NCBI GenBank assembly: GCA_028281495.1
Contig: JANQJU010000095.1
Location: 25,206-89,205, forward strand
Origin: SAR324 cluster bacterium
GTDB lineage: Bacteria; SAR324; NAC60-12
Direction: 5' to 3'
Length of the DNA: 64,000 bases
Shown: positions 3,001 through 63,773 of the stretch, piece by piece
Layout of the letters: each line of letters begins with the position of its first letter
Numbering within the stretch: the first letter of the stretch is position 1
Position numbers and translations under genes: made by a program
Notes under the pieces: generated by a model
Database searches by the model: none
Told to the model about the DNA's origin: nothing
Seen by the model: only the letters and a program-made list of their open reading frames with translations

Positions 3001-5121
3001 GACACCAGCAACCAAAAAGCCACCGAGGAGGACTCGAAATCAAAAACTCCAAAACCCGCAACAACCCACGAGACGGGACCTCAAAAACAAGCCCAGAGTG
3101 ATATCGACGAACTGGCCACCATCCTCAAACGGATTATGGATGCCACGGGAGTGGCGATGGAAAGCGACGACACCAATTGGGAAGAGGCGGAACCGGAGGC
3201 TAAAAAGGCCGCCGCCGCCGAGGCAATCGAGACAACCTTCCAAAACAAAACATTCACTCAGAGTGAAATCGATGAAGAGTTGCAACGCGTCAAGAAGAAA
3301 TACGCTCTCAGTGAGGCCTCTTTCGATGTGGACAACAGCCGAATAGCCTTAGCGGCTTCTCCGGCAACATTTTTACCGGTGGAAGCAAACGCAGTTCCAC
3401 CAAGCCTACAAGACGGTGTGGATAGACACGTCAATGATACAGATAACACTGTTGCCGCAACAGGAAACTACCTTAAGGCTACGCATTTCGATGGACCGTT
3501 TCCAAGTCCTGCAGATGAGGTTGACGAAGGTCTACATCGATTTGCTGATATAGGTATTGAGATTCCTCTTGGGGATTCAGGATTAAAAACTCTAGGGAAT
3601 GCACCTCGACGTCCAGGGAGAGTAGAGGCTTTGTTAAGTTCTTATAAAAATGAAGGAAGAGCCGAGGGAGATACTACGTCATATGGTCATTTGGGAGTCG
3701 ATGAAGAAAAGATAATCAAAGGAACGAACAGTGTATCCTACGATGGAGGACATTTGGTGGGAGATCAATTGATGGATAGTCATCATTCATTCAATTTGTT
3801 TGAAGACTGGAACTTGGCACCTCAGGTTGAGAACTTCAACCGAGCAGCTTATTTAAATGTCATTGAAAAACCAGTTGCTAAAGCTATTAAAAACGCAGGT
3901 GCAACAGTCAGTTATACCGTCCAAGTTCAATATCCTGATGATACGTACTCAATTGATCCTTTGAATTTAGCTGCCAATTTGTGGGGGGAGAATAGCCAAA
4001 CCGCAAATCAAATTCGTGATGCAATTATATATAAAAAAGCTCCAAATGAACCTTTAGAACTCAAAAGACGCACACCGGGGTATTGGTGGGCCCGTGCTCA
4101 AATAAAAGAAGGAGGACCGATTCAGTCGGGAAATATTAATCAGTACAAAAATGTTTCTCGGACAATGGAGCCTGATGATGTGAGAGATAATGAAGATTAC
4201 AGCCCTCCTGATGGCGAGCACGCCATATATCTATTGACAGTCGATGGTAATGTTCATGAATCTTCCAGTCGAGCTTTTGAAGCGGCTCCAAGTGCGGAAG
4301 CGGCTCAACGTATTAATTATGTTGCTCAAAACAGCGTAGAAATAACGAGCCGTCAAAAGACTTTTGACCCACCAGCACCAGCACCAGCGGAACAGGCTGC
4401 AGCGTCAGCCGGGCTACCAGCAGCCCCGGCAACAGGGGGAACCAATGGCAGTCCAGACGATCAACAGGCAGCAGCGGCACCACCGGCAGCCCCGGCAACA
4501 GGGTTAAGCTCGCGCAGTCGAGACGATGAATCGGAAGCCCGGCAATGGCCATACGATCAACTGGCCGCCGCGTCACCAGCAGCCCCGCCAACAGAGGGAA
4601 TCGGGCACAGTCCAGACTATCATGATCATATGGCAGCCTGGCTAACGGAAGCCATGCCAGAACGTGAAGGCGCTGAGGAAAATGGTAGCAATCAAGGTAT
4701 GGGTGCAGAATACAAAAAAGTAAAGAAACCTGGTCGTAAACTTAGGAATGATGGTGATGGTAAGGCACCTATAGTGCGTAATGATGCCTCATTAATCACA
4801 AAACCTGCGGAAGAAACATCATCGACAAATCGTTCTCATATGGAAACCGTGACATCGGCAGACCTGTTACCAGAAGACATGCAAAATAATGGAGGCACTA
4901 CAGGGACTGCGAAAATCGAATCAGTGACAAGTCGTCCTTCGAAGAGAAAAGGAGGTGCTGGTGCAGAATTGCCTGATGAAGGTAACTCGTCTGAGGAAAG
5001 TGACTCGCTTCCTGAAGAAGGTGAACCGGATAATATAAAGAGAGAAAAAGAGGATCCTCCTCCTCCGTCTAATGATCCTCAGGCGAAGGAGGGTGGTGCA
5101 GACAGGCCTGATAATTCTTAG
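1..5121 (+). CDS. Giant polymorphic-toxin-like protein, 5'-partial, with internal EssD/YeeF-type (Endonuclease_NS_2-like) nuclease module
   Basis: Frame 1 has no stop from base 1 through the tracked ATG at 379, so the ORF enters from upstream. It has a Lys/Pro/Ala-rich and coiled-coil N-part and a long hydrophobic/amphipathic helical core. Then comes YDGGHLVGDQL..NLAPQVENFNRAAY..VSYTVQVQYPDD (nt ~3730-3960), the GHL..NLxPQ..N pattern I associate with EssD/YeeF beta-beta-alpha-Me nucleases. The tail is disordered, acidic and Pro-rich. Confidence 0.75.
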   Translation, partial: HVSEITTTDDPEKEHKNVTKPEPSKVPEAKKELEARKPQEAVAKKKPNAVEKKKPEGKQRPNTKNKAAHKNKLAVTGKKKPEAAGKKTKENKTGPPDAAAGQQTKPSTKKHSSGDATPPKAAASLAMKAKATSGNQLVDFMRSSPTVMSQNISSLGNAMTANMNQQAKATLEAQPKISMKTSGSPDGGASVPPTLNKAAAPPKPIVLKKGPVPKYNNSVPTQHSRQDPSHISTSIGAKPKLQATGSADPKLTEQASKAGNTEADAAHVESLATIHSNNGEERVQPQQMELHKQAVLPAPVKMDQPAVSSEVLGYATQDLPGSVRTLSDKALKAKMESQLAANDQKVEAAVAKRDLDNQQAMEAAQTQAAKESAAAQAQQDAAVAQGRAAISSKKDEAAAETEGVMHKYKGQVTAKHKETMDKANKTIADHQKRADAEMAKGEQKAQAEKRKAEAEAARERQEAQRKKDKMHWWQKVGSFFSSLWSALSRAITAIVSVVTHVVTTVLKAAKNLAIGILNAATKILTVLIDQFTKALKAFLSVALASFPGIRVKLFAAIDAVVSAVKQVMDKVISSLKNTLTNLIDTLSKAYAFVASVFKAAMTAALAVATAIVKGRFSSLPMILFRAACEAAGIPPEPVIEILKNAADAFMDIIKHPINFVKNLFKATALGIKQFAKGLPKKLLGGLMSWLFGKLAEAGIELPKTWDLPSVFMLILKVLGLTLANVKARATAILGAKNMARIEFVIEQAKTLFTKSPAAVWDHLKAKAHEMKEAALKEINTWLITRVIGGLIEKFSPPVVGAIIGAIQMIMAMVGKAKQILQLMAAVSKSMKLIALGSLGAAANKIDSVLTQSIPLVINMAMGFLGITGLAQKVQDAILKLQEPANQAIDFIIKKFIALAKSAMSAVKKAGKKVVKKVKGLWQGRKDFTTKDGEEHAVYVDGTGKDASIVVNPVPKQEVSAYLDKAEKNLPENDEFKAKVQADLSQARSLLSTIEGDMVDVDTSNQKATEEDSKSKTPKPATTHETGPQKQAQSDIDELATILKRIMDATGVAMESDDTNWEEAEPEAKKAAAAEAIETTFQNKTFTQSEIDEELQRVKKKYALSEASFDVDNSRIALAASPATFLPVEANAVPPSLQDGVDRHVNDTDNTVAATGNYLKATHFDGPFPSPADEVDEGLHRFADIGIEIPLGDSGLKTLGNAPRRPGRVEALLSSYKNEGRAEGDTTSYGHLGVDEEKIIKGTNSVSYDGGHLVGDQLMDSHHSFNLFEDWNLAPQVENFNRAAYLNVIEKPVAKAIKNAGATVSYTVQVQYPDDTYSIDPLNLAANLWGENSQTANQIRDAIIYKKAPNEPLELKRRTPGYWWARAQIKEGGPIQSGNINQYKNVSRTMEPDDVRDNEDYSPPDGEHAIYLLTVDGNVHESSSRAFEAAPSAEAAQRINYVAQNSVEITSRQKTFDPPAPAPAEQAAASAGLPAAPATGGTNGSPDDQQAAAAPPAAPATGLSSRSRDDESEARQWPYDQLAAASPAAPPTEGIGHSPDYHDHMAAWLTEAMPEREGAEENGSNQGMGAEYKKVKKPGRKLRNDGDGKAPIVRNDASLITKPAEETSSTNRSHMETVTSADLLPEDMQNNGGTTGTAKIESVTSRPSKRKGGAGAELPDEGNSSEESDSLPEEGEPDNIKREKEDPPPPSNDPQAKEGGADRPDNS
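4417..4597 (+). repeat. Three copies of a ~21-nt GC-rich unit (CCAGCAGCCCCGGCAACAGGG-like) encoding PAAPATG / PAAPPTEG in the toxin tail
   Basis: Copies read at 4417-4437, 4483-4503 and 4576-4597, all in the coding frame of the large ORF. Confidence 0.8.
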
Positions 5122-5244: not shown

Positions 5245-6846
5245 ATGACTATTGAATCAAATGCATACAAAAAAGAATTTACGGAAACCACAACTCAGGA
5301 AAAGGGAGTTTGGCTGGGAGATTCCATCATTTGGAAACAGGTCGGAGCCTTTTATCAAGACACGGGCATTTCAGCCTGGGAAAGTGCGATCCCCTACCTG
5401 GTGACCAGCAATCCTCGAATTGCTGCTTCTTACGTCGAGATGGCGTTGGCTTTTATGGAAGATTGGATGAGACAAAACGGCAAACTGGCGGCCACTTGCC
5501 AATTCGTTGAGCTGGGAGCCGGACATGGCAGTTTCGCCTTGATGATGCTACGCGCATTGGCAGAGCGAGAAAAGGACTTTCGAGGGTTGGGTGTTCGCGT
5601 TCGTTACCTCTTGACGGATTTAGCTGCTGTTAATGTGGAAGCCTGGAAAAGTGATCCCTGGCTGAAAAACTGGTTGAACTCTGATGAGATTCAAGTGGCT
5701 CAATTTGACTGCATGCAGCAACAACCCGACTTGAAACCAATCAACTCGGAGGAAGGTCCCATCATTTTTATTGCCAACTATTTGTTCGATTCCTTACCTC
5801 ATGAAGCCTTTTTGTTGGAAGGCAAGGAAATACTTCGTGCCGAAACGTTCATCACGGCGAATGCCCAATCGAAGGACCCCAATGATTGGAAAATGAGTCT
5901 GGATTTTAAACCGTGCCCCATCGAGAGCTTGGAAGAAACAACGACAGAATTGCTGGAAGAATACAGGAAGCTGAGAGTTCAAGGGTGTGTTTTAATACCC
6001 GTGGGTGCCGTCCAGTGTATTGAAAATTTAAGGCAGTTGAGCAATGACCGTTTTCTGCTTTTGTGCTCGGATAAGGCACTATCCACTGAAAACAGTATTC
6101 AACACCGGAATCCCGCCGAAATTACGGCGTTCATGCATGCATCCATGCTAGTGAACCTACATGCCCTGATGCTTTATTTTCAGCGCAAAGGCGGGTGTGC
6201 TTGGATGCAGAAAACACAGCAGCAGTCCCTCTCTTCAGCAGCCTTCAGCATGGGAGTGGACTCTACTCAAATGCGCCACACTGACCGGGCCTTTTCACAG
6301 CAGCTTGACCAAAACAGTCCGGGAGACCTTTACAACTTGTCAACACAACTCTTGGAGCAGCGTTTTTCCTTAAATCTGGGCAGCATGCTGTCTCTGTTAA
6401 AGCTCATGGAATGGGATGCTTTGGTTTTTGAAGGCCTATACGATGCGATTCTTGCTTACTTGCCCTCCGCCACGGGGAGTGAGGTGTCGGATTTGCTGGA
6501 TGCTCTGCCATTGATTGCGGAGCGGAGATATCCGCTGCCCAGCTCGGGCGACACCCTGTTTCACATTGCGCACCTGCTGCAAACGCTTCAATGCTGGCGA
6601 TCCGCGATTAAACATTATCAGAACCGGATTGTTGAACGAGGGGATTCGGCGGAAGTGAGTTACAATCTTGGGTTATGCTTTAACGCGATAGAGGACCCCC
6701 ACACGGCAAAGGCGTGTTTTCAGCAGGCTTTGGAACTCAACCCAGACTTTCTTTTGGCTCAGGGTTGGCTTTATCGGCTCAATGCCCCACCAGATTCCAT
6801 TCCCGTTGGAGCCTCTAATACAGAACAAGCAGCTGCAATAATTTAA
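5245..6846 (+). CDS. MidA/NDUFAF7-like class I SAM-dependent methyltransferase with C-terminal TPR
   Basis: IPYLVTSNP..., QFVELGAGHGSFALMMLRAL (SAM-binding G-x-G loop) and IIFIANYLFDSLPHEAF resemble the Methyltransf_28 (MidA) pattern. The C-terminus YNLGLCFNAIEDPHTAKACFQQALELNPDF is TPR-like. Confidence 0.5.
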   Translation: MTIESNAYKKEFTETTTQEKGVWLGDSIIWKQVGAFYQDTGISAWESAIPYLVTSNPRIAASYVEMALAFMEDWMRQNGKLAATCQFVELGAGHGSFALMMLRALAEREKDFRGLGVRVRYLLTDLAAVNVEAWKSDPWLKNWLNSDEIQVAQFDCMQQQPDLKPINSEEGPIIFIANYLFDSLPHEAFLLEGKEILRAETFITANAQSKDPNDWKMSLDFKPCPIESLEETTTELLEEYRKLRVQGCVLIPVGAVQCIENLRQLSNDRFLLLCSDKALSTENSIQHRNPAEITAFMHASMLVNLHALMLYFQRKGGCAWMQKTQQQSLSSAAFSMGVDSTQMRHTDRAFSQQLDQNSPGDLYNLSTQLLEQRFSLNLGSMLSLLKLMEWDALVFEGLYDAILAYLPSATGSEVSDLLDALPLIAERRYPLPSSGDTLFHIAHLLQTLQCWRSAIKHYQNRIVERGDSAEVSYNLGLCFNAIEDPHTAKACFQQALELNPDFLLAQGWLYRLNAPPDSIPVGASNTEQAAAII

Positions 6847-52772: not shown

Positions 52773-53195
52773 ATGATCAATTTTATCGAAGTTAGCAAAG
52801 CAATATCCCATGCGTTACGCCACGAACCATGGCTTTATGAATTGGAATTGGATCAAGAAGGCTGGGTTCCTATGGAACAGATGTTATCTGCATTACACTC
52901 TGAAAAACCGGATTGGGAGTCCTTACAAGAGAGCGATCTTCATACAATGATGGCGCGATCGGAAAAGCAACGGTATGAGATCCAAGATGGCAAAATTCGG
53001 GCGCTTTATGGTCATTCAGTACCAGGGAAGGTCACCAAAACTTCCACAGCGCCCCCCTTGGATTTCGACTCCAGTATTGGGGGTTCGATGCCTCCCGCCC
53101 CTACCAATCTAAAAGGTTTAAATAGAATATCTAACGATAAATATGCAGCTATGGGAAAAGAATTCAAAAGGTTTGAGAAGCTACAGTCAATGTAA
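52773..53195 (+). pseudogene. kptA: RNA 2'-phosphotransferase (KptA/Tpt1), only the N-terminal ~95 codons; the rest of the ORF is read-through into unrelated sequence
   Basis: ISKAISHALRHEPWLYELELDQEGWVPMEQMLSAL...KQRYEIQDGKIRALYGHSV...APP parallels the E. coli KptA N-lobe as I recall it. The expected ..LYHGT.. and the NAD-binding lobe are absent. Similarity ends at nt 53057. Confidence 0.7.
53058..53106 (+). pseudogene. 3' half of a tRNA-Arg(UCG) with encoded CCA (anticodon arm to 3' end), no 5' half
   Basis: TTGGA-TTTCGAC-TCCAG (anticodon UCG with U33 and A37), variable TATT, T-arm GGGGG-TTCGATG-CCTCC, acceptor strand CGCCCCT, then A and CCA. The upstream sequence is kptA coding, with no D-arm or 5' acceptor strand. 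Confidence 0.7.
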
Positions 53196-53348
53196 AAACT
53201 GATAATTTCTATAACCTTTTTAAAAGAATGAAGTCCATTAAACGAGTCTATGGGATGGATTCGATATGTCCACCCGGCGCATTGTTTCTGAAAATTGAAA
53301 TTCTGTGTATCGACCTGGACTTTAGCCAGTGCCTGTCAAGCGCTGGAT

Positions 53349-53421
53349 TCACGCGGCCGCAGGTTCAATTCCTGCCACCTTTCGAGGTGTAGCTCAGTTG
53401 GTTAGAGCACGTGTCTATTGG
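53349..53421 (+). ncRNA. Circularly permuted tRNA-like element (order 39-72 then 1-38) with acceptor helix closed as CACCT-TTCG-AGGTG
   Basis: Read in order: TCACG, CGGCC, GCAGG-TTCAATT-CCTGC, CACCTTT, CGAGGTG, TA, GCTC-AGTTGGTTA-GAGC, A, CGTGT, CTATTGG. All canonical tertiary positions are present (U8, A14, G15:C48, G18G19, T54T55C56, G53:C61). Whether it is transcribed or functional is unknown. Confidence 0.5.
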
Positions 53422-53500
53422 GATAGCTCTGCGAGAGCAACGGACTGAAAATCCGTGAATGCAGGTGGGCCGCAACAGCGGACCATTCCTGCTCCACAAT
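53417..53500 (+). ncRNA. Aberrant tRNA-Phe(GAA)-like element: short D-loop without GG, and a T-loop carrying an 18-nt hairpin insertion
   Basis: Acceptor ATTGGGA / TCC(A)CAAT with one bulge, then TA and D-arm GCTC-TGCGA-GAGC. The anticodon arm is ACGGA-CTGAAAA-TCCGT. The T stem GCAGG/CCTGC encloses T-GGGCCGC-AACA-GCGGACC-ATT. No CCA is encoded. Confidence 0.45.
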
Positions 53501-53776
53501 GCAAAAAGGGAGAGCTGAATATTCGGTGGAGGTGTTTTGAAATAGAGACGAGTTTTGTTTCGAAACCATCATCCACACAGAGTTGATGCTTTGCTCGTAT
53601 GAGGATACCGCTGACTGAATGCTCGGTTAGAGACTGGGCTGGTTTCGATTTTTCCTAATTCTCGAAAAACGATTCCTGTCTAGTTTGCGATTCGTCCAAT
53701 CGGTAAGCTCAATCATTCGACCGCATTGATTGTGTTAAGAATATTCAGTGATCTTGACAGAAAGGAGGTTAAATTC

Positions 53777-54931
53777 ATGTTCAAAATTTTGTTTATATGG
53801 ATATGTCGACTGTTGATGTTTGAACGGATTCTTGTGCAAGAAAATCAACGTGTACTGGTGTTTCGAGATGGAACGTTCCTTAAAATTCTATCGCCAGGCA
53901 CCTATTGGTTTTTTAAGGCACTTCATGAATTGACCTTTGAAAATCACGATATCACGCAACCTCAATTTTGTAGTGAATGGACCGATGTATTGTTGAAAAA
54001 TCACAAAGATGAAGTAGCGGATTGTTTGACCTGGGTTGATATTCTGGATCATCAGGTCGCGCTCGTTTCATTGAACGGAAAGGCTTATGAACTGCTTCCT
54101 TTAGGAGCACGTCGGGCTTATTGGACTGTGATGCATGAGCTTGATTTTGAGGTGATTGACACGTCGCAGAATCTGCAGGTGCCTCCTGAAAAAGTACCTA
54201 CACTGATGCGACTGAGGTCCAATCATTTCAGCTGGCACATTGTTACTGAAAACAGTGTAGGGTTGCTGTTTGTCAATGGTCAACTGACTCAACAATTGGG
54301 GCCTGGAGGTTATGCGTTTTGGAAAACTGGGTTAGAGCTACGGTTCGAAATTCTAGATTTGCGGGTGCAGCAAGTTGAAGTGGTTGGACAAGAAATTTTG
54401 ACCAAAGATCGTGTCAGCTTACGAGTGAATTTGACCGCGCATTACCAAGTGATGGATCCGGTTAAAGCCAAAACTCAGGTGGTTGGTTATTCCGATATGC
54501 TTTACAAATACTTACAGTTCGGTTTGCGTGAAGCGATTGGTGGCCGAAATTTGGACGAACTCTTGTTGGATAAAAACCAACTCAACGAAGTCGTTTTCTC
54601 CACAGCTAAAAACCAAATTGAAGCGTGTGGCGTGGAGTTAAAAGCGGTAGGTATCAAGGACATCATTTTGCCTGGCGAAATCCGGGACATCATGAACCAA
54701 GTGGTTGAAGCACAAAAGCGTGCCGAAGCCAACTTGATCAAAAGGCGTGAAGAAACCGCTGCTACCCGATCCTTGCTCAACACAGCTAAGTTGATGCAGG
54801 ACAATCCCACGTTGCTGCGCCTCAAGGAGCTAGAAGCGCTAGAAAAGGTAACGGATAAAATCGACAACCTGCATGTCTATAATGGGGTCGAGGGATTGAT
54901 GAATAACTTGGTCCCTTTGGCTAAATCGTAA
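53777..54931 (+). CDS. SPFH/band-7 (stomatin/prohibitin-like) domain protein with an N-terminal SPFH-like duplication
   Basis: ATG at 53777 after AAAGGAGG is preferred to the tracked 53726. The N-terminal TM helix is followed by VQENQRVLVFRDGTF..LSPGTYWFF and again by VTENSVGLLFVNGQL..LGPGGYAFWK. The canonical SPFH core is ILTKDRVSLRVNLTAHYQVMDP...REAIGGRNLDELL, with a coiled-coil tail. Confidence 0.75.
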   Translation: MFKILFIWICRLLMFERILVQENQRVLVFRDGTFLKILSPGTYWFFKALHELTFENHDITQPQFCSEWTDVLLKNHKDEVADCLTWVDILDHQVALVSLNGKAYELLPLGARRAYWTVMHELDFEVIDTSQNLQVPPEKVPTLMRLRSNHFSWHIVTENSVGLLFVNGQLTQQLGPGGYAFWKTGLELRFEILDLRVQQVEVVGQEILTKDRVSLRVNLTAHYQVMDPVKAKTQVVGYSDMLYKYLQFGLREAIGGRNLDELLLDKNQLNEVVFSTAKNQIEACGVELKAVGIKDIILPGEIRDIMNQVVEAQKRAEANLIKRREETAATRSLLNTAKLMQDNPTLLRLKELEALEKVTDKIDNLHVYNGVEGLMNNLVPLAKS

Positions 54932-55094: not shown

Positions 55095-56492
55095 TTATTT
55101 ATTCTTTACCCTTAGAGATTTAAGCAAACGCTCCTTTGCATTTTCGTACTGGCTATCATTTCTCCAATTTGAAAAATCTGCGACATGTTGCTGTTTAAAA
55201 AGCATCTTCACCCAGGCTAATTGCGATCTTAGCACCGAATCATCCAATCGAATCGGTAATATATTTGATTTTCCTTGAGCAGCCCAATGGTATTCCTTTG
55301 AGACCCATTCGCTTTTTATAGAATGCCTTGAAAGTATGACAAGAAACACCTTACTACGTTGAATCTCTGCCAGAATCGTTTCTTTTAGATAATCTCCTCC
55401 GTAAAGATCATTGTACCAACAGTTCACACCACCGAGAGTCAGGTCAGCATATAGCCTATTGGTAAACTCTCTATCTTCTGAAGTATGGCTCATAAAACAA
55501 AAATCCCTTTCATGTATCTGAGCTTCATCTAATAGGATTGCATCCCTTAAATTAGCCTCACCAAATTCTGTTCGACGGACTTTTACCTTGCGTAAATCTG
55601 TCTTTGTCAACCTCGCTCCTGAAAGATTCGCTTGTCTTAGATCTGCTCCCTGAAGATTCGCGTGTTCCAAAATTGCGTTCTCGAAATCTGCGTGTAGGAG
55701 ACTTGAATTTCTGAAGTCTCCACCGCTCAAATCGACTTCCTTCAAAACGACTCTGTTCATGGTCGAATTTTGACATCTGGGAGGCTCTTCAAAATCTGCT
55801 TTTAAAAAGTTTGCCTCACTTAGATTGGCTTCTTCGAAATCTGTATTCATCAGGCGAGCACTTTCAAAGTTGGCTTCACCCAGGTACGCATATCTGAAAT
55901 CTGTATTCATCAGGCGAGCACTTTTAAAGTTTGCTTCACTCAGGTCCGCATATCTGAAATCTGTATTCATCAGGCGAGCACTTTCAAAGTTGGCTTTTTG
56001 AAGTTTCGCCTCACGAAAGTCTGCTCTATTGAGATTTGCTTCATAAAACCTAGAATCGTCCAAAATCGCTTTGACAAGGTCGGCTTCTTGAAGCATCGCC
56101 CCACTGAGATTAGTATTATTCAAATCTGTTCTAAAGAGAGTTGCATTACTGAGATCCGTATTACTCAATTCCGCATGACTTAAATTAGCTCCCTCCAGTT
56201 CAACACCCTGCAAGTTAGCATCACTAATATTTGCTTCACTGAGATTAGAGTCTTTCAAATCGGCACCACGAAAGTCAGCCCCTTGAAGATTAGCACCGCT
56301 GAGATTTGCTTCGTTTAATTTCCAATTGCTAAAATCCTTGTTTCTTAAATCTACCTTCTTGAGGTCAGCTATTTCTCCTTCTTCGCCTTCTGACTCAACC
56401 CATTCTTCATGTTTTTCGAGAATGAGTTCCAACTCTTCTGCAGAAATTTTTCGTAAATCAGCCACTGAATCTCTCAACTTGAGTTTTTCCAA
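55095..56492 (-). CDS. Pentapeptide-repeat protein with C-terminal TIR domain
   Basis: ~250 aa of A(D/N)LxG-type pentapeptide repeats (ANLSGANLQGADFRGADLKDSNLSEANISDANLQG...), then FMSHTSEDREFTNRLYADLTLGGVNCWYNDL...VFLVILSRHSIKSEWVSKEYHWA. This fits the TIR pattern, including the conserved Glu after S..W. Confidence 0.8.
   Translation of the reverse strand: MEKLKLRDSVADLRKISAEELELILEKHEEWVESEGEEGEIADLKKVDLRNKDFSNWKLNEANLSGANLQGADFRGADLKDSNLSEANISDANLQGVELEGANLSHAELSNTDLSNATLFRTDLNNTNLSGAMLQEADLVKAILDDSRFYEANLNRADFREAKLQKANFESARLMNTDFRYADLSEANFKSARLMNTDFRYAYLGEANFESARLMNTDFEEANLSEANFLKADFEEPPRCQNSTMNRVVLKEVDLSGGDFRNSSLLHADFENAILEHANLQGADLRQANLSGARLTKTDLRKVKVRRTEFGEANLRDAILLDEAQIHERDFCFMSHTSEDREFTNRLYADLTLGGVNCWYNDLYGGDYLKETILAEIQRSKVFLVILSRHSIKSEWVSKEYHWAAQGKSNILPIRLDDSVLRSQLAWVKMLFKQQHVADFSNWRNDSQYENAKERLLKSLRVKNK
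55838..55996 (-). repeat. Intragenic 60-bp tandem repeat, ~2.6 near-identical copies, encoding ESARLMNTDFRYA(D/Y)L(S/G)EANF(K/E)
   Basis: The sequence lines 55861, 55921 and 55981 are almost identical in register: ...AAATCTGTATTCATCAGGCGAGCACTTT(C/T)AAAGTT(G/T)GCTTCAC... Confidence 0.9.
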
Positions 56493-56586: not shown

Positions 56587-59211
56587 ATGAATAAAGTTTA
56601 CGACCAGTATTGGGGGAAAGCAAAGTCTACCAAAACCGTTAGTCACCACCTATTTGCTTACCACAGCCTGGATGTGGTCGCAGTGGGAACCCGTTGGTGG
56701 GAAACGAGTGTTGCTTTGCGTAACGGGATGATTCGAGCGATGGGTGTCGATGAACCTCAAGCCAAGGCCTGGATGCAATTCTTTTTAGGGCTGCATGATT
56801 TAGGAAAGCTCGATTTTCGTTTCCAGCAGAAGGCTCCTCAGGTTGCAAAAAAACTGGGGCACTCGGTCGAGAACTCCAGAAAGCGTTCAAATTATGATCA
56901 CGGAGAATGGGGGTTCACTTGGTACCAACGCGAGCGGGAATCACGCTATGGTTTGCCCGAACGAAAGAGGGCTTATTGGATTCAATGGGGACGAGCCGTT
57001 ACCGGACATCATGGACGCTTTTATCAATGCGTTGACAAGAGCACGGTTGAAGGTCTCATGATCAACGAAGCCTCGCGAGATGTATGGAATAAAGATCAGT
57101 TGGCTCGCACTGAATGGTGTGAGGATTTGTATGAATGGTTTCTCGTTCCAGCAGGCCTCAGCAAAACATCGCTTTCCCCTCCCTGTCCCCACCAATTCGC
57201 TGGGTTTTGCTGCGTCTGTGATTGGCTTGGTTCCAATGAAACACCAGGTTTCTTTGAGTATGATGACCAACCCTATCCTGACTTGATGCAATACTTTCAG
57301 TCACGCTTTCCGATTGCTCAGCACAGTCTTCAAACAAGCGGTTTGTTCGTTCCCGCAGTGAACAAAGGGGGAGTTTCCTTAGTTCTTGAACAAGGCCAAT
57401 CTCCCCGAAAAGTGCAAAGTTTAGTGGAACAACTACCAGTGCAACCTGGATTGACCATCATCGAAGCTTCCACAGGTTCTGGCAAAACAGAGACGGCTCT
57501 GGGCTATGCAAGTATTCTCCTAGCAAACTCGCTTGCAGACAGTGTGATGATTGCCTTACCCACTCAAGCCACCGCCAACACTATGTTGGCACGAATGGAA
57601 AAGATCGCGCCCCGCTTGTTTCCAGTTCAAGTGAATTCTCCCCACTCACTCAGCAATCTGCTATTGGCACATGGAAAATCTAACTTCGAGCCGCGTTTTA
57701 TTGAACTCAAAAAGACGATGTATCGCAATACCGCTCAAGGGAAGGAGGAGGCTCTTACGCAATGTTCTCAATGGTTAGCTGAAAGCCGGAAGCGTGTGTT
57801 TTTAGGTCAAATTGGTGTCGGGACTATCGATCAGGTACTCATGTCGGTTTTACCAATTCGTCATCAATTTGTTCGTGGTTTCGGATTGCACAAAAGTGTG
57901 CTGATTGTGGATGAAGTTCATGCTTATGATTTTTATATGGTGGGGCTGTTGGAAGAAGTCTTAAAAAAGCAACGGGAAGCGGGCGGCAGTGCCATAATGC
58001 TATCGGCAACATTACCAGCGATACAAAAATCGGTTCTCTTAAAAGCTTGGAGCAGTAAGGAAGATGCATCGGCGAATTCGCCATATCCTCTGATTACTCA
58101 CGTCAATCAGGAAGGTAGGTTTCAAACATTTAAAATAGCAGACAAAGCTCAGGAAATAGCAGACAAAGTTCGCCAATCGCCATCGAATGGTATCAAACTG
58201 GAACGGTTGGTAACCTCCGATTGGCGATTGTCCCAACAACAAATGGATCGAGTACTTGAGGCCGCAACTTCCGGTGCTCATGTGGCAATTGTGCTGAATT
58301 TAGTTGATGAAGCTCAAAGACTTTTCAAACAACTGACACAACGAGTGAACGGACGGCCCATTGCTCTGGATTTATTTCATGCACGTTTTCGTTTCAAAGA
58401 TCGCCAAACTCGTGAACAGGCAGTGATCGAACATTACCAACCCCGTTCTATCCTCAAACCGGGGCGTATTCTGGTTGCTACTCAGGTCGTTGAACAAAGC
58501 CTCGATCTCGATTTCGATTGGCTCATCACTCATTTGTGCCCCGTTGATTTACTGTTTCAACGTATCGGGCGTTTGCATCGACACCAAACCACGAAACGTC
58601 CTCAGGGGTTTGAAAATCCGTTGTGTACGGTCATTTTAAATCAGGGAAACAATTATGGCCTCCACCAATTGATTTATGGAAATGCCTCTGTGTTATGGCG
58701 TACCAAGGAATTATTGAAATCGCATGATTGTTTAAAGTTCCCCTACATCTACCGACCTTGGATTGAGCAAGTGTATCAAGAGGATGCTTGGTCCGATGAA
58801 CCTGCTTCCATTCAAAAGCAAAAGGCCGAATTTTTAGTGGAACAGAAAACTCGAAACCAAACAGCAAAGCAACTGAGCCAAGAATGGTTTACGCCTTTGA
58901 AAGATAATGATCAAAACGCGGCATTACTGACACGTGATGGAGAAATGGGTCTCAATCTACTCTTGGGCAGAAACGACAATTCTTCATTTCAATTGTTGGA
59001 TGAGGACTGGGATAAGGCTTTTGTCAACGAGCAAATCAACCGCCATACGGTTGCGGTACCTGCCTCTTGGAAACGATTTTTACACGAACCAAAACAGGGA
59101 TTATATCACGTCTCGATGAAGCCCCACCCTGATATCGAATCGGAGTGGGCCAGCGATGAACTCAAGTTACGCTACAGCTCTGAGCGAGGGCTAGAAAGGG
59201 TCAATGGATGA
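56587..59211 (+). CDS. cas3: Type I-E Cas3 HD nuclease / SF2 helicase
   Basis: N-terminal HD domain (HHLFAYHSLDVVAV, GLHDLGKLDFRFQ), helicase motifs STGSGKTE (I) and VDEVHAYD (II). 874 aa, directly upstream of and overlapping cse1. Confidence 0.9.
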   Translation: MNKVYDQYWGKAKSTKTVSHHLFAYHSLDVVAVGTRWWETSVALRNGMIRAMGVDEPQAKAWMQFFLGLHDLGKLDFRFQQKAPQVAKKLGHSVENSRKRSNYDHGEWGFTWYQRERESRYGLPERKRAYWIQWGRAVTGHHGRFYQCVDKSTVEGLMINEASRDVWNKDQLARTEWCEDLYEWFLVPAGLSKTSLSPPCPHQFAGFCCVCDWLGSNETPGFFEYDDQPYPDLMQYFQSRFPIAQHSLQTSGLFVPAVNKGGVSLVLEQGQSPRKVQSLVEQLPVQPGLTIIEASTGSGKTETALGYASILLANSLADSVMIALPTQATANTMLARMEKIAPRLFPVQVNSPHSLSNLLLAHGKSNFEPRFIELKKTMYRNTAQGKEEALTQCSQWLAESRKRVFLGQIGVGTIDQVLMSVLPIRHQFVRGFGLHKSVLIVDEVHAYDFYMVGLLEEVLKKQREAGGSAIMLSATLPAIQKSVLLKAWSSKEDASANSPYPLITHVNQEGRFQTFKIADKAQEIADKVRQSPSNGIKLERLVTSDWRLSQQQMDRVLEAATSGAHVAIVLNLVDEAQRLFKQLTQRVNGRPIALDLFHARFRFKDRQTREQAVIEHYQPRSILKPGRILVATQVVEQSLDLDFDWLITHLCPVDLLFQRIGRLHRHQTTKRPQGFENPLCTVILNQGNNYGLHQLIYGNASVLWRTKELLKSHDCLKFPYIYRPWIEQVYQEDAWSDEPASIQKQKAEFLVEQKTRNQTAKQLSQEWFTPLKDNDQNAALLTRDGEMGLNLLLGRNDNSSFQLLDEDWDKAFVNEQINRHTVAVPASWKRFLHEPKQGLYHVSMKPHPDIESEWASDELKLRYSSERGLERVNG

Positions 59212-60674
59212 ATTTACTGACAGATGCTTGGATTCCAGTTCATGCACAAGGGCAACACACTCATCTCCATCTGGAAACCATTCTCACTGATGAAACATCG
59301 TGGGAGATCGACTTGCCTAGAGATGATTTGGAGTTGGCAGCCATTCAGCTTCTTAGCAGCCTAGTGCAATGCCTGTTGCCTCCTGAAGATCTGGACGATT
59401 GGGTAGAACGATTGAAAGCTCCGATTCCTACAGAAACCTACCGGCAAGCAATCAAACCTTTTCAGGAATGGTTTGATCTGAGCCATTCCCAATACCCGTT
59501 TATGCAATGCTTGGCCACCACTGCGAAAAACATTACTCCCATTCAAAAGCTCTTTGTCGGATTGCCAGAAGGCAACAATCACATTTTTTTTAACCGACCA
59601 GGTGAAGTCCAACTTGCTTGTTCCTCCTGTGTCGCCATCGCTCTCTTCAACCAAGCCTCCAATGCACCTAGTTTCGGAGGGGGGTTTAAGGATGGATTAA
59701 GAGGAGTGCCGATTTCTACAATGATTCGAGGCTACAACCTTCGTGAAACCTTGTGGTTGAATGTTCTATCTCTTCAGAAATTGCCGCTACCTTATGACCC
59801 AGAACAACCGGATGAACCGGTGTGGGTGAGTCCTATTGAACAAAATTCAAAATTCTCGGCGGCTTCTATTGGGTGGGTTCGAGGGCTGTTTTGGCAGCCG
59901 CATCACCTCCGGTTGAATTCTCCTCAGCAAGGAGCATGTGACGTGTGTCAAACTCAAAATACGGACGTGTTTTCTGGTTTCCTGAAGGAAAGATTCAAAT
60001 TTAGTTTGGAGGGCACCTGGAAGCATCCCTACAGCCCCAGTGAGTGGAAAAAGTCGAACGACAAAGAAACTAACTATCTTTCTTTTCGGAAAAATATCCC
60101 AGCCTGGACTCACTTGGATCGTTTTCTGGTTCCCCATCAGAAAACGAACGAAAAATTCGGATCAACCCCAGCTTTGGTCGTGGATCAATTCAAAGAGGGG
60201 CTTGCAGGTGAACGACATCTAAGCCTGATTGTTGGAGGATATCGGAATAAGCAAGCCTCGATCCTGCAACGTCGTCACACCCTTTTTGATCTCTCTGAAG
60301 GATGGATAGATAAAGGAGAATGGGGCCTCGTGGAGAAATTCATCAGCATCATTTTAGGCATCAAGAAATTGCTCACGAACTACCTTTATGGCGTGGGTAA
60401 AAAAGTGGGTTCCCAAGGTTTATCCGAAACGGCAGAAAGGCAATTTTACTTCCGCACAGAACCCATGATCCACGAGATTCTTCGTTCGTTTCAGAGGGAT
60501 TCATGGAGCGAGACTTCCACCCAATTTTTCCAACAATTGGAAATACTTGTGAATGAACTTTATGACGCCACTGTAAAACCCTTCGAGCGGAATGAAAAAC
60601 ATTTGAAAATTATTGTCGTGACCAAGGCTCGGTTCCAGCTTGCCTTAAAACGACTTCGAAAGGAGGCACTTTGA
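59208..60674 (+). CDS. cas8e: Cascade large subunit Cse1/Cas8e (CasA)
   Basis: MNLLTDAWIPV..., LPRDDLELAA, YPFMQ and CVAIALFNQASNAPSFGGGFKDGLRG closely parallel E. coli CasA as I recall it (MNLLIDNWIPV, LPRDDMELAA, CTAIALFNQANQAPGFGGGFKSGLRG). Confidence 0.9.
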   Translation: MNLLTDAWIPVHAQGQHTHLHLETILTDETSWEIDLPRDDLELAAIQLLSSLVQCLLPPEDLDDWVERLKAPIPTETYRQAIKPFQEWFDLSHSQYPFMQCLATTAKNITPIQKLFVGLPEGNNHIFFNRPGEVQLACSSCVAIALFNQASNAPSFGGGFKDGLRGVPISTMIRGYNLRETLWLNVLSLQKLPLPYDPEQPDEPVWVSPIEQNSKFSAASIGWVRGLFWQPHHLRLNSPQQGACDVCQTQNTDVFSGFLKERFKFSLEGTWKHPYSPSEWKKSNDKETNYLSFRKNIPAWTHLDRFLVPHQKTNEKFGSTPALVVDQFKEGLAGERHLSLIVGGYRNKQASILQRRHTLFDLSEGWIDKGEWGLVEKFISIILGIKKLLTNYLYGVGKKVGSQGLSETAERQFYFRTEPMIHEILRSFQRDSWSETSTQFFQQLEILVNELYDATVKPFERNEKHLKIIVVTKARFQLALKRLRKEAL

Positions 60675-61222
60675 GCACCCTATCTTCAACTACAATGATC
60701 GAACAAAACAAAGCGGCTGAATCCCAATATAATGAACTCTGGCGACGTTTTCATGAGTTCAACCCCAAAGTAAGAGCCGAAATCAGGCGGGTACGCACCT
60801 ACGAAGATTTAGGAAACGTTCCTTCATTTTATCATCTATTTTTTGGACTCAAATTTCCCTATAGCGATCAATGGCATCGTATCGTCTACTTCTTCCCCTA
60901 CCTTGACGAAACGAGTGCCGTTGATGGGCTGTACCGCCCTTTAGGTCGTCAATTTCTGGATCATAAGATCAGCGAATCTCGAATCGTTCAGCTAGTGCGG
61001 GCAGATCATCCCCAAGATATGGATTATCTACGACGTTTGATTCAACACGCGCAACCCGTTGCCAATTGGCGGAACTTTGGTTCGCTCCTTTACTACTGGG
61101 GCAAATCCAATGCACGAAAGATCCTTCAGGACTACTGCTTAGCAGCTGTCGCGCTCGACGATCAGTCCCGTGAATACCAAAACCAGAAATCCCCATCCCA
61201 GCAAGGAGAATCTCATGACTGA
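60671..61222 (+). CDS. cse2: Cascade small subunit Cse2/Cas11e (CasB)
   Basis: 183 aa. IRRVRTYEDLGNVPSFYHL and RIVQLVRADHPQDMDYLRRLIQHAQPVANW parallel E. coli CasB (IRRVSEPDELRDIPAFYRL, RIFQLIRADRTADMVQLRRLLTHAEPVLDW). Confidence 0.85.
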   Translation: MSTLSSTTMIEQNKAAESQYNELWRRFHEFNPKVRAEIRRVRTYEDLGNVPSFYHLFFGLKFPYSDQWHRIVYFFPYLDETSAVDGLYRPLGRQFLDHKISESRIVQLVRADHPQDMDYLRRLIQHAQPVANWRNFGSLLYYWGKSNARKILQDYCLAAVALDDQSREYQNQKSPSQQGESHD

Positions 61223-62330
61223 AAACCAGCCATTAAAGAACTTTGTCAATATCCACATTTTGATTTCTCACAGCCCATCTTGTTTGAACCGAGACGATAT
61301 GAACATGCAAAAAGCTGCTGTGTTTGGTGGCGTTAAGCGCACCAGAATTTCTAGTCAAAGCCTCAAACGCTCCATACGACACAGCGATTATTACCGACAG
61401 CATTTGGGAGATCCATCAATTCGGACACGAGAGTTAGGGGTAATGCGTCAAAAAATTATTGAGGCATTAGGGAACAAATATTCGGAAGACATAGTAACCC
61501 AAACGTTACAAGAGCTGACGGACAAAACGGAGATGGAAGCGACAACTCGTGCTGATGCGGTCGCGCCTTGGGTCATCTCAGAAATTGATCAATTGTGTCG
61601 TATTGTTCAAGCCAGTGAAGGGGATGCAAAACAATTGAAGCAACTGCTCAACACCAATGCCGAAACGCTCAGGGAAAGTCTCAAGTCAGGTGGCATTGAT
61701 GTGGCACTTTCAGGGCGCATGGCAGCGAAAGGCAAACTGAGCAATGTAGACGGTGCAATGGCTGTGGCTCATTCCATCACAACCCATGCATCAGAGCCGG
61801 AAATTGACTGGTTTACGGCAGTGGATGATTTGGCAAGTGAACAAGGAGAAACTGGTTCAGGACATTTGGATACACAAGAATTCAGTGCAGGAGTGTTTTA
61901 CCGATATGCCAGTATCAACCTGAGACAGTTACAGAAAAATTTGGGAAATACAGATCGTTCCTTCGTACTTTCGGTTGCTGCTCACGTGGTCCATCTTATG
62001 GCCACCGTTGTACCCTCGGCGAAACAAAATAGTTTCGGTGCCTACAATTTGGCTGACTTTGTGATGGTGAACTTAGGGCATCAACCCATTTCCTTAGCAA
62101 ATGCGTTTGAATCTCCAATTAATAGCAAAAAAGAGGGATACTTGGGTGCTTCCATCCAAGCTTTGGAATCTTATTGGAATGATGTTTCGAAAGGATATGG
62201 TTTGGAAGATCAAATGGCCTCATTTAGCCTGAATCAGAAATCGAAGTCCTCTCGATTTCAAGCCATCCAAGAATTGGAAAACTGGCTCCGTGCCGATGGA
62301 CAATCTTCTCTCCCTTCTCAAGATCAGTAG
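61215..62330 (+). CDS. cas7: Cascade backbone subunit Cas7e (CasC)
   Basis: ATG at 61215 after AAGGAGAA overlaps the cse2 stop. FVNIHILISHSPSCLNRDDMNMQKAAVFGGVKRTRISSQSLKRSIR is nearly identical to the E. coli CasC N-terminus as I recall it. Confidence 0.9.
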   Translation: MTENQPLKNFVNIHILISHSPSCLNRDDMNMQKAAVFGGVKRTRISSQSLKRSIRHSDYYRQHLGDPSIRTRELGVMRQKIIEALGNKYSEDIVTQTLQELTDKTEMEATTRADAVAPWVISEIDQLCRIVQASEGDAKQLKQLLNTNAETLRESLKSGGIDVALSGRMAAKGKLSNVDGAMAVAHSITTHASEPEIDWFTAVDDLASEQGETGSGHLDTQEFSAGVFYRYASINLRQLQKNLGNTDRSFVLSVAAHVVHLMATVVPSAKQNSFGAYNLADFVMVNLGHQPISLANAFESPINSKKEGYLGASIQALESYWNDVSKGYGLEDQMASFSLNQKSKSSRFQAIQELENWLRADGQSSLPSQDQ

Positions 62331-62338
62331 GAGGTCCA

Positions 62339-63016
62339 ATGAACACCTATCTAATCCTACGTCTCCAAGGACCTATGCAGTCCTGGGGGGATCATACATT
62401 TGAAGATTTTCGTCCCTCTCATCCCTTTCCAACTCGCAGTGGCCTCACCGGCTTATTGGGAGCATGCTTGGGCATCGACCGAGCAGAAACACAAGCTCAT
62501 GCCGAACTTTCTGCCAGTTTCGCTATGGCGGTGCGGAGCAATCAAACCATGACCAAACTTGAAGACTTTCACACTGTTTTTGATGTCGAACGCGTGAGTG
62601 GACCACCAAGGAAACACCCTGTGGTTTCAAGACGGGAATATTTGTGTGATGCATCGTTTTCCGTCGCCATGCGGTTCTATGACAATGCTGTGTTCCGTTT
62701 AGAACAAGTGAAATCCGCTATTCAAGCTCCTTACTACACCCCCACCTTAGGGAGGCGATCATGCCCACTCGCAGTCCCATTATTAGAGCGAGAACACGGG
62801 GGAGAAGTCCAAGCCCCAGATGTATTGCAGGCGTTTGCACTAATTCCGCCTCAGCAGGGTATTGTGTATTTCGAGCCTTCAGAAATTCCGGAAAGTCTGC
62901 AACTAAAACCGCCTCAATTAGCACTTCGCGATGTTCCGTCGCCTCAAGGGATAAGGCAGTTTGCCAAGCGAACAGTATGTATCTATCAATCAGGCGAAGA
63001 TCGTACATCTCATTAA
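62339..63016 (+). CDS. cas5: Cascade subunit Cas5e (CasD)
   Basis: MNTYLILRLQGPMQSWGDHTFEDFRPSHPFPTRSGLTGLLGACLGIDR parallels E. coli CasD (MRSYLILRLAGPMQAWGQPTFEGTRPTGRFPTRSGLLGLLGACLGIQR). Confidence 0.9.
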   Translation: MNTYLILRLQGPMQSWGDHTFEDFRPSHPFPTRSGLTGLLGACLGIDRAETQAHAELSASFAMAVRSNQTMTKLEDFHTVFDVERVSGPPRKHPVVSRREYLCDASFSVAMRFYDNAVFRLEQVKSAIQAPYYTPTLGRRSCPLAVPLLEREHGGEVQAPDVLQAFALIPPQQGIVYFEPSEIPESLQLKPPQLALRDVPSPQGIRQFAKRTVCIYQSGEDRTSH

Positions 63017-63026
63017 AAAAGGAGGA

Positions 63027-63773
63027 ATGATGCCTATTTTATATTTGAGCCAAATTGTACTGTCTGGTCCTCAACGGAGGAAACTCCAGACCGCCAATAG
63101 TTATGAGTTACATCAATTACTGCGGAAAGCTTTCCATACAGGGAATGAGAGGCAGACTCGAAACTTCTTGTATCGGGCAGACCACAAACCACATCACACT
63201 CATATCTTGGTGCATTCCCAAAACGAACCGGATTGGAGCCAAATTTTTAACCCTACTGAATGGGAAGTAAAATGCTACACACCCCAATTTCGAGAAGGGC
63301 AAGCCTTCTCTTTTTATCTCCGAGCCAATGCCGTGATTGCGGAAAGGAAGTTACCGGGCCAACGTTCTAAAAAACGCCCGCTAACTGCTACCGAATACCT
63401 TCACCGAGTTTGGTATTCGTCTAAGGGAGAAATCGAATCCATGGAACACAATCAAGGTTGGATTTTTCGACAAAGTAAGCAACATGGATTTTCACTAATA
63501 GATGTTGATACCTTGGGACAGGCGTTGGCTTCCGGTGTCAAAACATTCAAAAATCTCAAACACCATGCTCTTTCTCAACAATACAATAGTGAAACAAACC
63601 ATTGCCAAGCTTCCCACTCATCATCCGCTCCAAATTTTATCCGACACACTGGACAGAATCTACGAGGCACTTTGCAGATAACTGATGTGGAAAAATTTGG
63701 GTCCATCTATGTGTCAGGTTTGGGACGAGGTAAAGCTTTTGGGTTTGGTATGTTGAGTCTGTTAAGACGATAA
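63027..63773 (+). CDS. cas6e: Cas6e (CasE) crRNA endoribonuclease, longer than the E. coli protein
   Basis: Start at ATGATG (63027/63030) after AAAAGGAGG. ILYLSQIVLS..YELHQLLRKAF parallels MYLSKVIIAR..YQLHQGLWHLF. The C-terminus GLGRGKAFGFGMLSL matches the Cas6e glycine-rich loop. An extra ~45-aa Ser/His/Gln-rich segment precedes the last strand. Confidence 0.85.
   Translation: MMPILYLSQIVLSGPQRRKLQTANSYELHQLLRKAFHTGNERQTRNFLYRADHKPHHTHILVHSQNEPDWSQIFNPTEWEVKCYTPQFREGQAFSFYLRANAVIAERKLPGQRSKKRPLTATEYLHRVWYSSKGEIESMEHNQGWIFRQSKQHGFSLIDVDTLGQALASGVKTFKNLKHHALSQQYNSETNHCQASHSSSAPNFIRHTGQNLRGTLQITDVEKFGSIYVSGLGRGKAFGFGMLSLLRR

Follow-up and report, generated by a model that had tools for sequence, protein, structure and literature searches.

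A predicted leader RNA with two tRNA-like modules is paired with a slipin gene in a SAR324 cluster bacterium and in other bacteria

A slipin gene of a SAR324 cluster bacterium is preceded by a structured RNA that contains two tRNA-like modules. The locus lies in a stretch of 64,000 nucleotides (nt) of contig JANQJU010000095.1 (GenBank assembly GCA_028281495.1, positions 25,206 to 89,205 of the forward strand), which we refer to as the window and to which all window coordinates refer. The gene (53777..54931) encodes a slipin or Band-7 (SPFH) protein of 384 residues, recognized by Pfam Band_7 with an E-value of 2.8e-30, and stomatin structures match its residues 155-366. A Shine-Dalgarno (SD) sequence, AGGAGG, at 53763-68 precedes the ATG at 53777-79; both were read from the sequence. 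Upstream on the same + strand, to which every part of the RNA described below belongs, are module 1 (53349..53414), a tRNA-shaped four-way junction with its parts in permuted order, and module 2 (53418..53499), a cloverleaf that ends 277 nt before the slipin start. An earlier reading made from the letters of the window (the sequence-only reading) had drawn attention to these two elements, and their segments were confirmed base for base. It had, however, confined the feature to 53349-53500. The two elements are the central modules of one conserved structured RNA of about 530 nt, which extends from about 53231 to 53756.

The nearest slipins in a collection of 5.8 billion proteins are 49-54% identical to that of the window, and the six loci that encode them (L129, L130, L131, L133, L135 and L136) were aligned with it as its closest relatives. 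In all six, 380-1020 nt without a called gene lie upstream of the Band_7 gene, and the genes that flank Band_7 are unrelated from one locus to the next. The MAFFT alignment shows the same order in the window and in each relative, namely a 5' domain, module 1, a linker of 3-5 nt, module 2, a 3' domain, GAGG and ATG, and in the relatives the alignable extent runs from a TTGACA box through the start codon. The RNAalifold consensus for the window and these six loci has 129 pairs, 69 of them with compensatory changes. When pairs were counted, 91.5% of the alignment cells were paired, compared with 37-43% when the partners were slid by 1-3 columns, and both sides had changed in 70 pairs, compared with 15-27 for the slid partners; none of 500 shuffles reached the observed pairing values. 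Covariation judged by these pair counts thus supports the structure, and the arrangement, far from being unique to this genome and devoid of compensatory change, recurs with the same two modules in all six closest loci.

Module 1 was read from the sequence and is supported by an Rfam match to YrlA, by its fold and by its relatives. From 5' to 3' it is made up of the 3' strand of an anticodon-type stem (TCACG, 53349-53), a variable region (CGGCC, 53354-58), a T arm (GCAGG-TTCAATT-CCTGC, 53359-75), an acceptor closed by UUCG (CACCT-TTCG-AGGTG, 53376-89), TA corresponding to U8-A9 (53390-91), a D arm (GCTC-AGTTGGTTA-GAGC, 53392-408), A26 (53409) and the 5' strand of the anticodon-type stem (CGTGT, 53410-14). 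The stem that closes the module, equivalent to that of an anticodon arm, is CACG/CGUG (53350-53 with 53410-13) and is replaced in the relatives by GCAAG/CUUGC, GCGAG/CUCGC or GCGAU/AUCGC. All the elbow nucleotides are canonical (U8, A14, G18, G19, C48, T54-A58 and C56). The module has no free ends, and its acceptor hairpin, CACCU-UUCG-AGGUG, carries no CCA. Folded alone, module 1 adopts the proposed junction as its minimum-energy structure with z = +0.2, so that folding energy alone is uninformative here. Over the window and the six relatives, five of the six pairs of the closed acceptor covary, and the closed hairpin is kept in every relative with a loop sequence that varies. In a permissive local Rfam scan, in which E-values refer to a search of 901 nt, YrlA was the best match of the region (53333-53427, 37.5 bits, E = 1.8e-6), below its curated cut-off of 69. 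The proposal of a permuted tRNA body with a UUCG-closed acceptor is therefore upheld by the isolated fold, by this sub-threshold match and by the covariation. One detail of it was mistaken: CTATTGG, which had been taken for a 7-nt loop of this element, is really the linker followed by the 5' acceptor strand of module 2, so that module 1 has no anticodon loop and its anticodon-equivalent stem opens instead into the remainder of the RNA. Compared with all six relatives, the window carries an extra 9-11 nt (CTGGATTCA, 53340-53349) between a conserved GCG and the closing stem of this module. Together with the T arm this segment gave a spurious tmRNA-like alignment of 22 bits; the sole tmRNA match of the permissive scan has that score, the cut-off being 47, and does not extend beyond the T arm.

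Module 2 rests on an Rfam tRNA match (53418-53500, 28.7 bits, cut-off 29), on its minimum-energy fold, which is the proposed cloverleaf when the module is folded alone (z = -3.9), and on orthologues next to Band-7 genes. Its parts, again read from the sequence, are an acceptor (TTGGGA at 53418-23 and TCCACAA at 53493-99), TA followed by a D arm with a loop of only 5 nt (GCTC-TGCGA-GAGC, 53426-38), an anticodon-like arm (ACGGA-CTGAAAA-TCCGT, 53440-56) and a T stem (GCAGG at 53461-65 and CCTGC at 53488-92). In place of the T-loop there is a hairpin, GGGCCGC-AACA-GCGGACC (53467-84), with T before it and ATT after it. A REP-like origin of this hairpin was considered and rejected, because this 18-mer occurs just once in the window and is no repeat. 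Both strands of the 7-bp acceptor that had been described are present, but just 3-4 pairs are conserved across the relatives (GGA/UCC, plus a U-A pair in the relatives), and neither the window nor its close relatives have a discriminator or CCA. Similarly, the anticodon-like stem covaries at all five pairs, which bears out the arm itself, but the GAA that had suggested tRNA-Phe is not conserved. The orthologues in the six relatives score 49-57 bits as tRNA in Rfam and are called as tRNAs by ARAGORN, with the anticodons GAA (Phe) in three and CAU (Met), CGA (Ser) and AAU (Ile) in one each. This drift argues that module 2 is not a decoding tRNA. In the window ARAGORN calls no tRNA or tmRNA at all.

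The sequence-only reading had also held that module 1 keeps the tRNA elbow and that module 2 has lost it, and this proved correct; the loss is peculiar to the lineage of the window. Module 2 has a normal D-loop and T-loop in all six relatives, none of which has the hairpin insert, and among the seven aligned loci the elbow-less form occurs in the window copy only. Comparison of the seven loci thus suggests that both elbow partners, the D-loop and the T-loop, were lost together in this lineage. As a result of this loss, the RNA retains one intact elbow, in module 1, and one anticodon-like arm, in module 2.

The modules are flanked by two further domains. The 5' domain (53231..53323), which was aligned with the six relatives and described by a covariance model (R1), is closed by a helix, AAGUCCA/UGGACUU (53231-37 with 53317-23), that was read from the sequence after MAFFT had misaligned it. 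Alignment with the relatives places within it a hairpin (53251-60/53268-76) and a helix with a conserved GGCGC...GUGUAUCGA (53277-88/53297-53308), and pair counts over the seven loci show that helices 2-4 of this domain covary. R1 gives the window, which is a training member, 68.5 bits; outside the training set it finds matches at the same relative position in L123 (38.8 bits), L070, L064, L052, L117 and L119, and weaker ones in L095 and L024. The 3' domain (53507..53756) was defined by the RNAalifold consensus and by pair counts (helices 16-20). A long-range helix that includes GCUGAAUAU/AUAUUCAGU closes it (53507-22 with 53741-56, from the consensus and the pairs of the window), and the helices that it encloses contain conserved GGAUACCG (about 53603-10) and GACCGC motifs. 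This closing helix, helix 16, is paired in 93% of cells and has seven pairs with double changes. Its 3' end is 7 nt from the AGGAGG of the window. The distance to the SD is 7-10 nt for the window and four of the six relatives; it is greater in L129 and L133, and amounts to about 50 nt in L136. GAGG boxes are aligned in all of the relatives. Upstream of the RNA, TATAAC at 53210-15 aligns with the -10 element of the relatives. Rfam 15 holds no family for the leader of about 530 nt, and no family was matched in the window at gathering thresholds; the Rfam check that had been suggested is therefore negative at curated thresholds and yields, in the permissive scan, the YrlA and tRNA matches given above. 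At gathering thresholds the related loci gave tRNA matches only, save for one YrlA match 2 kb from the element in L018.

A wider sample of loci was obtained with a DNA pattern in which a T-loop is joined to a D arm 13-21 nt downstream. The pattern was scanned in one genome per species and retrieved at least 120 stretches, which with the window's own two copies make up the 122 matches listed. Of these, 78 were classed as ordinary tandem tRNAs, although several of the 78 are in fact unpermuted members of the family that lie upstream of slipin. The acceptor is closed by a hairpin in the other 44, and these fall into two groups, tandem Y-RNA arrays (in Hymenobacter, Mucilaginibacter and others) and long non-coding stretches, mainly in Bacteroidota. 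When the slipin of the window was compared with the pattern loci by tblastn, homologues 31-43% identical to it were found directly downstream in about 35 loci among the matches listed, from Bacteroidota, Alphaproteobacteria and Gammaproteobacteria; slipin homologues follow the tRNA-like modules in 44 fetched loci. In all 30 genome loci listed that have a good slipin match, the tRNA-like pattern lies 260-826 nt upstream on the same strand, and in none is it on the other strand. The same association is seen when the search begins from the protein: among the loci found via slipin alone (L123-L131, L133 and L135-L139), all those with upstream sequence have tRNA-like modules there. The RNA was never seen without a slipin gene in the loci sampled, and a scan of 53000-53850 found no terminator-like site between the two in the window. 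A physical link with the SPFH gene, as expected of the cis leader that had been one of the earlier proposals, is thus well founded.

We conclude that the RNA and slipin are an obligate same-strand pair in the loci sampled from three bacterial phyla. What crosses the phyla is the pairing of tRNA-like modules with slipin and not homology of the flanking domains. R1 gives no match to the leaders of Bacteroidota or Escherichia coli, and nhmmer profiles built from sequence alone for the two flanking domains extend to L123-L125 only; since neither method links these leaders to the window RNA, cross-phylum homology of the flanking domains is not established. The RNA and slipin probably form a widespread and laterally mobile two-part unit. 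Searches of other collections for the slipin returned little: an exact-protein look-up found it in the same organism only, a metagenome scan with the protein found 6 loci only, all at 43% identity or less, tblastn of a phage collection found no homologue, and PADLOC has no model that matches it. In two loci (L134, 1222-4278, and L136, 7225-10251) a protein of about 1010 residues with a kinase domain and a beta-propeller is encoded 8-46 nt after slipin and may be a lineage-specific operon partner.

The modules themselves vary across the family. In L126 (5480-5626), in L070 (about 5590-5740 on the - strand), in L024 (about 1790-1950) and in Bradyrhizobium loci, the position of module 1 is occupied by an ordinary, unpermuted cloverleaf. 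This form occurs in Alphaproteobacteria and Xanthomonadales and ends in ACCA in L126. Its presence at the position of module 1 implies that natural circular permutations of a tRNA-like domain exist within one RNA family. The Bacteroidota loci (L004, L007, L016, L051, L053, L055, L061, L073, L085, L088, L127 and L128) have two or three permuted, closed-acceptor modules in series and, after them, an arm whose loop reads CUNAAAA; RtcB is often encoded close by, as is a WYL-type regulator, and tRNA arrays often lie within a few kb. A reduced leader, with a T arm and a closed hairpin only, is found in E. coli and Citrobacter. Of 5426 complete E. coli genomes, 1629 have a slipin-nucleotidyltransferase operon between yjbD and lysC, and in E. 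coli WAT (L139, 4001-4529) the 530-nt region upstream of the slipin operon, which has a TGGCAC-N5-TCGCA box, is unannotated in RefSeq.

RtcB, RtcR, a nucleotidyltransferase and WYL regulators are recurrent but non-obligate neighbours of the pair. Of the 42 family loci sampled, 9 have RtcB, 8 a WYL-type regulator and 3 a metallophosphoesterase. In Citrobacter freundii (L138, 5553-6000) a divergent rtcR adjoins slipin-nucleotidyltransferase, and a sigma-54-type box, TGGCAC-N5-T(C/G)GCA, precedes both the E. coli and the Citrobacter leaders. The PaFlo8 system of Pseudomonas aeruginosa is embedded in an rtc locus, in an account that does not mention an RNA (PMC13086221). RtcB, RtcA and RtcR were not found among the larger open reading frames of the window, nor was Ro60/TROVE. 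The gene upstream of the RNA had been described as a truncated RNA 2'-phosphotransferase gene, and so it is: the homology of this kptA (52773-53195) stops at profile position 88 of 177. A link of the RNA to KptA was considered and rejected, since the fragment has no homologue in any related locus.

Three other features of the window may be recorded. The 3' two-thirds of a tRNA-Arg(UCG)-like gene lies at 53055-53106 on the + strand, about 240 nt upstream of the tRNA-like modules, and starts about 15 nt past the end of the kptA homology. It comprises the anticodon arm UUGGA-UUUCGAC-UCCAG, the T arm GGGGG-UUCGAUG-CCUCC, CGCCCCU, A and CCA, and is unique in the window, which holds no intact tRNA in its 64 kb. 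This fragment appears to be what is left of the attachment site of an integrative element that targeted a tRNA gene and truncated kptA. Downstream of slipin are a TIR domain fused to pentapeptide repeats (55095-56492, - strand; PDC-S66/ThsB-like in PADLOC) and a complete-looking type I-E CRISPR-Cas set (56587-63773, + strand: Cas3, Cse1, Cse2, Cas7, Cas5 and Cas6e). With these genes nearby, the slipin unit stands at the edge of a defence island.

How might such an RNA act? In the explanation that we favour, the RNA of about 530 nt (about 53231-53756) would be transcribed as the 5' leader of the slipin gene (53777-54931), and its two L-shaped tRNA mimics would present tRNA-like surfaces to factors that recognize tRNA, for which modification or processing enzymes, RtcB-type repair enzymes and tRNA-cleaving toxins are candidates. 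Two options then present themselves. First, the RNA, whole or processed, may combine with ring-forming slipin in a ribonucleoprotein scaffold for RNA repair, much as a Y RNA combines with Ro60. Second, it may report the state of tRNA-directed enzymes or toxins and so gate the translation of slipin, through the helix that closes the 3' domain and a neighbouring run of pyrimidines near the ribosome-binding site. These options are not mutually exclusive. Judged from the sequence comparisons, the combined statement, that the RNA is made as the slipin leader and is a tRNA mimic that partners or regulates slipin, is probably correct.

Several observations weigh against this explanation. The 3' domain and the leaders of Bacteroidota and E. 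coli are tied to the window RNA by the tRNA-like modules and short motifs only. The window copy satisfies 100 of the 129 consensus pairs, compared with 113-124 in the other copies; part of this deficit is an error of register in the MAFFT alignment, as CACCU/AGGUG, GCAGG/CCUGC and AAGUCCA/UGGACUU are in fact perfectly paired. The outer helix, H1, is missing from the window copy and the elbow of module 2 is lost, and because of these two absences the copy may be in partial decay. A consensus scan found no sigma-70-like promoter on the + strand of the window, and the TTGACA that is present in all six relatives is not recognisable there. There is no intact RNA-repair gene in the window, the truncated kptA (Pfam positions 4-88 of 177) does not recur beside the RNA in the related loci, and RtcB and RtcR are not near slipin in the six closest relatives either, so that the link to repair rests on more distant members of the family. 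Finally, the equivalence with a previously predicted RNA, the 'b7a-tRNA' discussed below, is known second-hand, through a preprint.

A more far-reaching form of the favoured explanation can be put forward as a tentative possibility. The whole leader would then belong to a class of large structured RNA that is so far undescribed and has tRNA mimics at its core, and which serves as a decoy or sensor for enzymes or toxins that target tRNA and which either switches on a cage-forming slipin or assembles with it, as a vault-like or Ro-like ribonucleoprotein for RNA damage. The modules of such a class would have been duplicated, reduced or permuted between lineages, the permuted form being that of the window and of Bacteroidota and the ordinary cloverleaf that of Alphaproteobacteria and Xanthomonadales.

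The most serious alternative is that the RNA is purely a cis-acting leader, whose fold controls the translation of slipin or the stability of its mRNA with no role in trans and no protein partner. Where the closing helix ends on its 3' side, UCCC or UCUU could base-pair either with GGGA (53507-11) or with the SD sequence, and the modules could serve as processing sites for RNase P or RNase Z or, like the thrS operator, be bound by a repressor that binds tRNA. Much of the evidence given above accords with this alternative, since the RNA is contiguous with the slipin gene, with no terminator-like site between, and is never without that gene in the loci sampled, while helix 16 is well conserved and near the SD; in addition, a CCCU/CCUU run just upstream of GAGG is conserved. 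However, a leader of 530 nt with two complete tRNA mimics far exceeds what known translational operators need, and in the window the SD could be sequestered only weakly, by UCUU against AGGA. Moreover, control in cis is compatible with the ribonucleoprotein model rather than exclusive of it. We therefore regard a purely cis-acting leader as doubtful, although by no means negligible.

It is very improbable that the RNA is a genuine YrlA-class Y RNA that binds a Ro60 orthologue, Rsr, encoded elsewhere in the genome. Module 1 has the order of T arm, closed acceptor and D arm that such an RNA would show, YrlA is the best Rfam match in the region, and in other genomes the DNA pattern also picks up real Y RNA arrays. 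The score is nevertheless far under the curated cut-off, the positions of the Ro-binding stem of the model are largely deleted in the alignment, the + strand from 53200 to 53520 lacks the GNCGAA(N)G motif, no TROVE domain occurs among the larger open reading frames of the 64-kb window and the conserved partner is slipin. The suggestion of a YrlA-like tRNA mimic thus holds as a resemblance, in the order of the arms and in the match of 37.5 bits, but not as membership of the class. As for the arrays themselves, the tandem apparent Y RNAs retrieved by the pattern share GGUGCCGUAG...UACUUCG flanks and come from Hymenobacter, Mucilaginibacter and Chitinophagaceae (L013, L017, L029, L030, L033, L041, L046, L065 and L116); in L018, positions 2912-3041 reach the Rfam YrlA cut-off with 72.6 bits.

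Two further alternatives have next to nothing left to recommend them. One is that the elements are functionless debris of tRNA genes, left by integrase-mediated recombination or by the decay of tandem tRNAs. The tRNA-Arg(UCG)-like 3' fragment with its CCA beside the truncated kptA, the nearby defence genes, which are typical of islands, and the degeneracy of module 2 compared with its orthologues might be cited for it. Yet six loci that differ in their neighbouring genes have the modules in the same order, every variable helix shows compensatory changes, and the modules recur across phyla, always upstream of slipin; nor are the relatives duplicates of assembly, since their slipins are only 49-54% identical to that of the window. 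A recombination scar, one of the earlier proposals for 53349-53500, therefore does not account for it. The other, that one or both modules are functional, aminoacylatable tRNAs such as tRNA-Phe, could appeal to the tRNA-like scores and ARAGORN calls of the module 2 orthologues and to the ACCA of L126, but is contradicted by the varying anticodons, by an acceptor that has 3-4 conserved pairs and, in the window and its close relatives alike, neither discriminator nor CCA, by the lack of free ends in module 1 and by the failure of ARAGORN to find a tRNA in the window.

We return now to the favoured explanation, a leader RNA that mimics tRNA and partners or regulates slipin, and to its relation to known systems. 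It bears on the question of why many bacteria keep RtcB, Band-7/slipin proteins and Y-RNA-like RNAs. The version in E. coli makes this question testable in a model organism, and the loss of the elbow in the window together with the permuted and unpermuted forms of module 1 provides ready-made variants for the study of structure and function. Burroughs and Aravind reportedly described, in the abstract of their 2016 work, SPFH/Band-7 modules with 'a novel tRNA-like molecule', a scaffold and RNA pair analogous to Ro and Y RNA. As that study is summarised in a preprint, a Band-7 protein with a predicted 'b7a-tRNA' is found beside RtcB, and YrlA occasionally adjoins a Band-7 protein, the RNA being without experimental validation (Wang et al. 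2018, from the Wolin laboratory; bioRxiv 10.1101/312249). As far as can be judged from this summary, the RNA-slipin unit matches two predictions made for loci of RNA damage and repair, the 'band-7-associated tRNA' and the 'YrlA next to Band-7' RNA. The tRNA-like element lies immediately beside the Band-7/slipin gene, in the window as in the prediction; RtcB, RtcR and nucleotidyltransferase are neighbours in part of the family; and the module 2 orthologues (49-57 bits) resemble authentic tRNAs, as the window copy (28.7 bits against 29, with no ARAGORN call) does less, while a YrlA-like closed-acceptor element is also beside Band-7. The differences, again with respect to the preprint's account, are that the tRNA-like and YrlA-like elements are here no alternatives but stand side by side in one leader, which also has conserved 5' and 3' domains, that module 2 of the window lacks the D-loop/T-loop elbow, and that there is no RtcB in the window or its closest relatives, linkage to RtcB being read as frequent and not as defining. 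A tRNA-like RNA beside Band-7 is thus already known as a prediction. With the 2016 original known second-hand, we have not found described a leader of about 530 nt whose helices covary and which has 5' and 3' domains, the occurrence of YrlA-like and tRNA-like modules together in one predicted transcript, the permuted and unpermuted forms of module 1, or a module 2 without an elbow. The literature search returned no later test of a Band-7-associated tRNA-like RNA and nothing further on multi-module tRNA-like RNAs or slipin leaders.

Module 1 resembles YrlA (RF02553; PMC4201824; bioRxiv 10.1101/312249) in its permuted topology, in its canonical elbow and in opening through the stem equivalent to that of the anticodon. 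It differs in having neither a Ro-binding stem nor the GNCGAA(N0-1)G motif; there is not even a CGAA on the + strand between 53200 and 53520. Chen et al. (2014, PMC4201824) found YrlA no more than about 4 kb from rsr and on its strand, whereas no rsr was found among the larger open reading frames of the window, and module 1 scores below the cut-off. Furthermore, module 1 is embedded in an mRNA leader with a second tRNA-like module, and its partner is slipin rather than Ro60.

The permuted tRNA genes of Cyanidioschyzon, of other algae and of some archaea, and the two-piece tmRNA, likewise place a 3' half before a 5' half. Such genes are expressed through circular or cleaved intermediates, which yield a normal acceptor end with CCA. 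In module 1, by contrast, the acceptor is a conserved closed hairpin, with no bulge-helix-bulge, CCA or tag reading frame, and ARAGORN, including its search for permuted tmRNA, finds nothing in the window. The comparison with algal and archaeal genes that the sequence-only reading had drawn is therefore formal only.

The 'ornate' RNAs GOLLD and ROOL provide the last comparison. Like them, the slipin leader is hundreds of nt long and has many covarying helices, and tRNA arrays are frequently near its Bacteroidota versions. The leader, however, matches no Rfam family at gathering thresholds, contains tRNA mimics rather than adjoining tRNAs, and is fixed upstream of one protein family.

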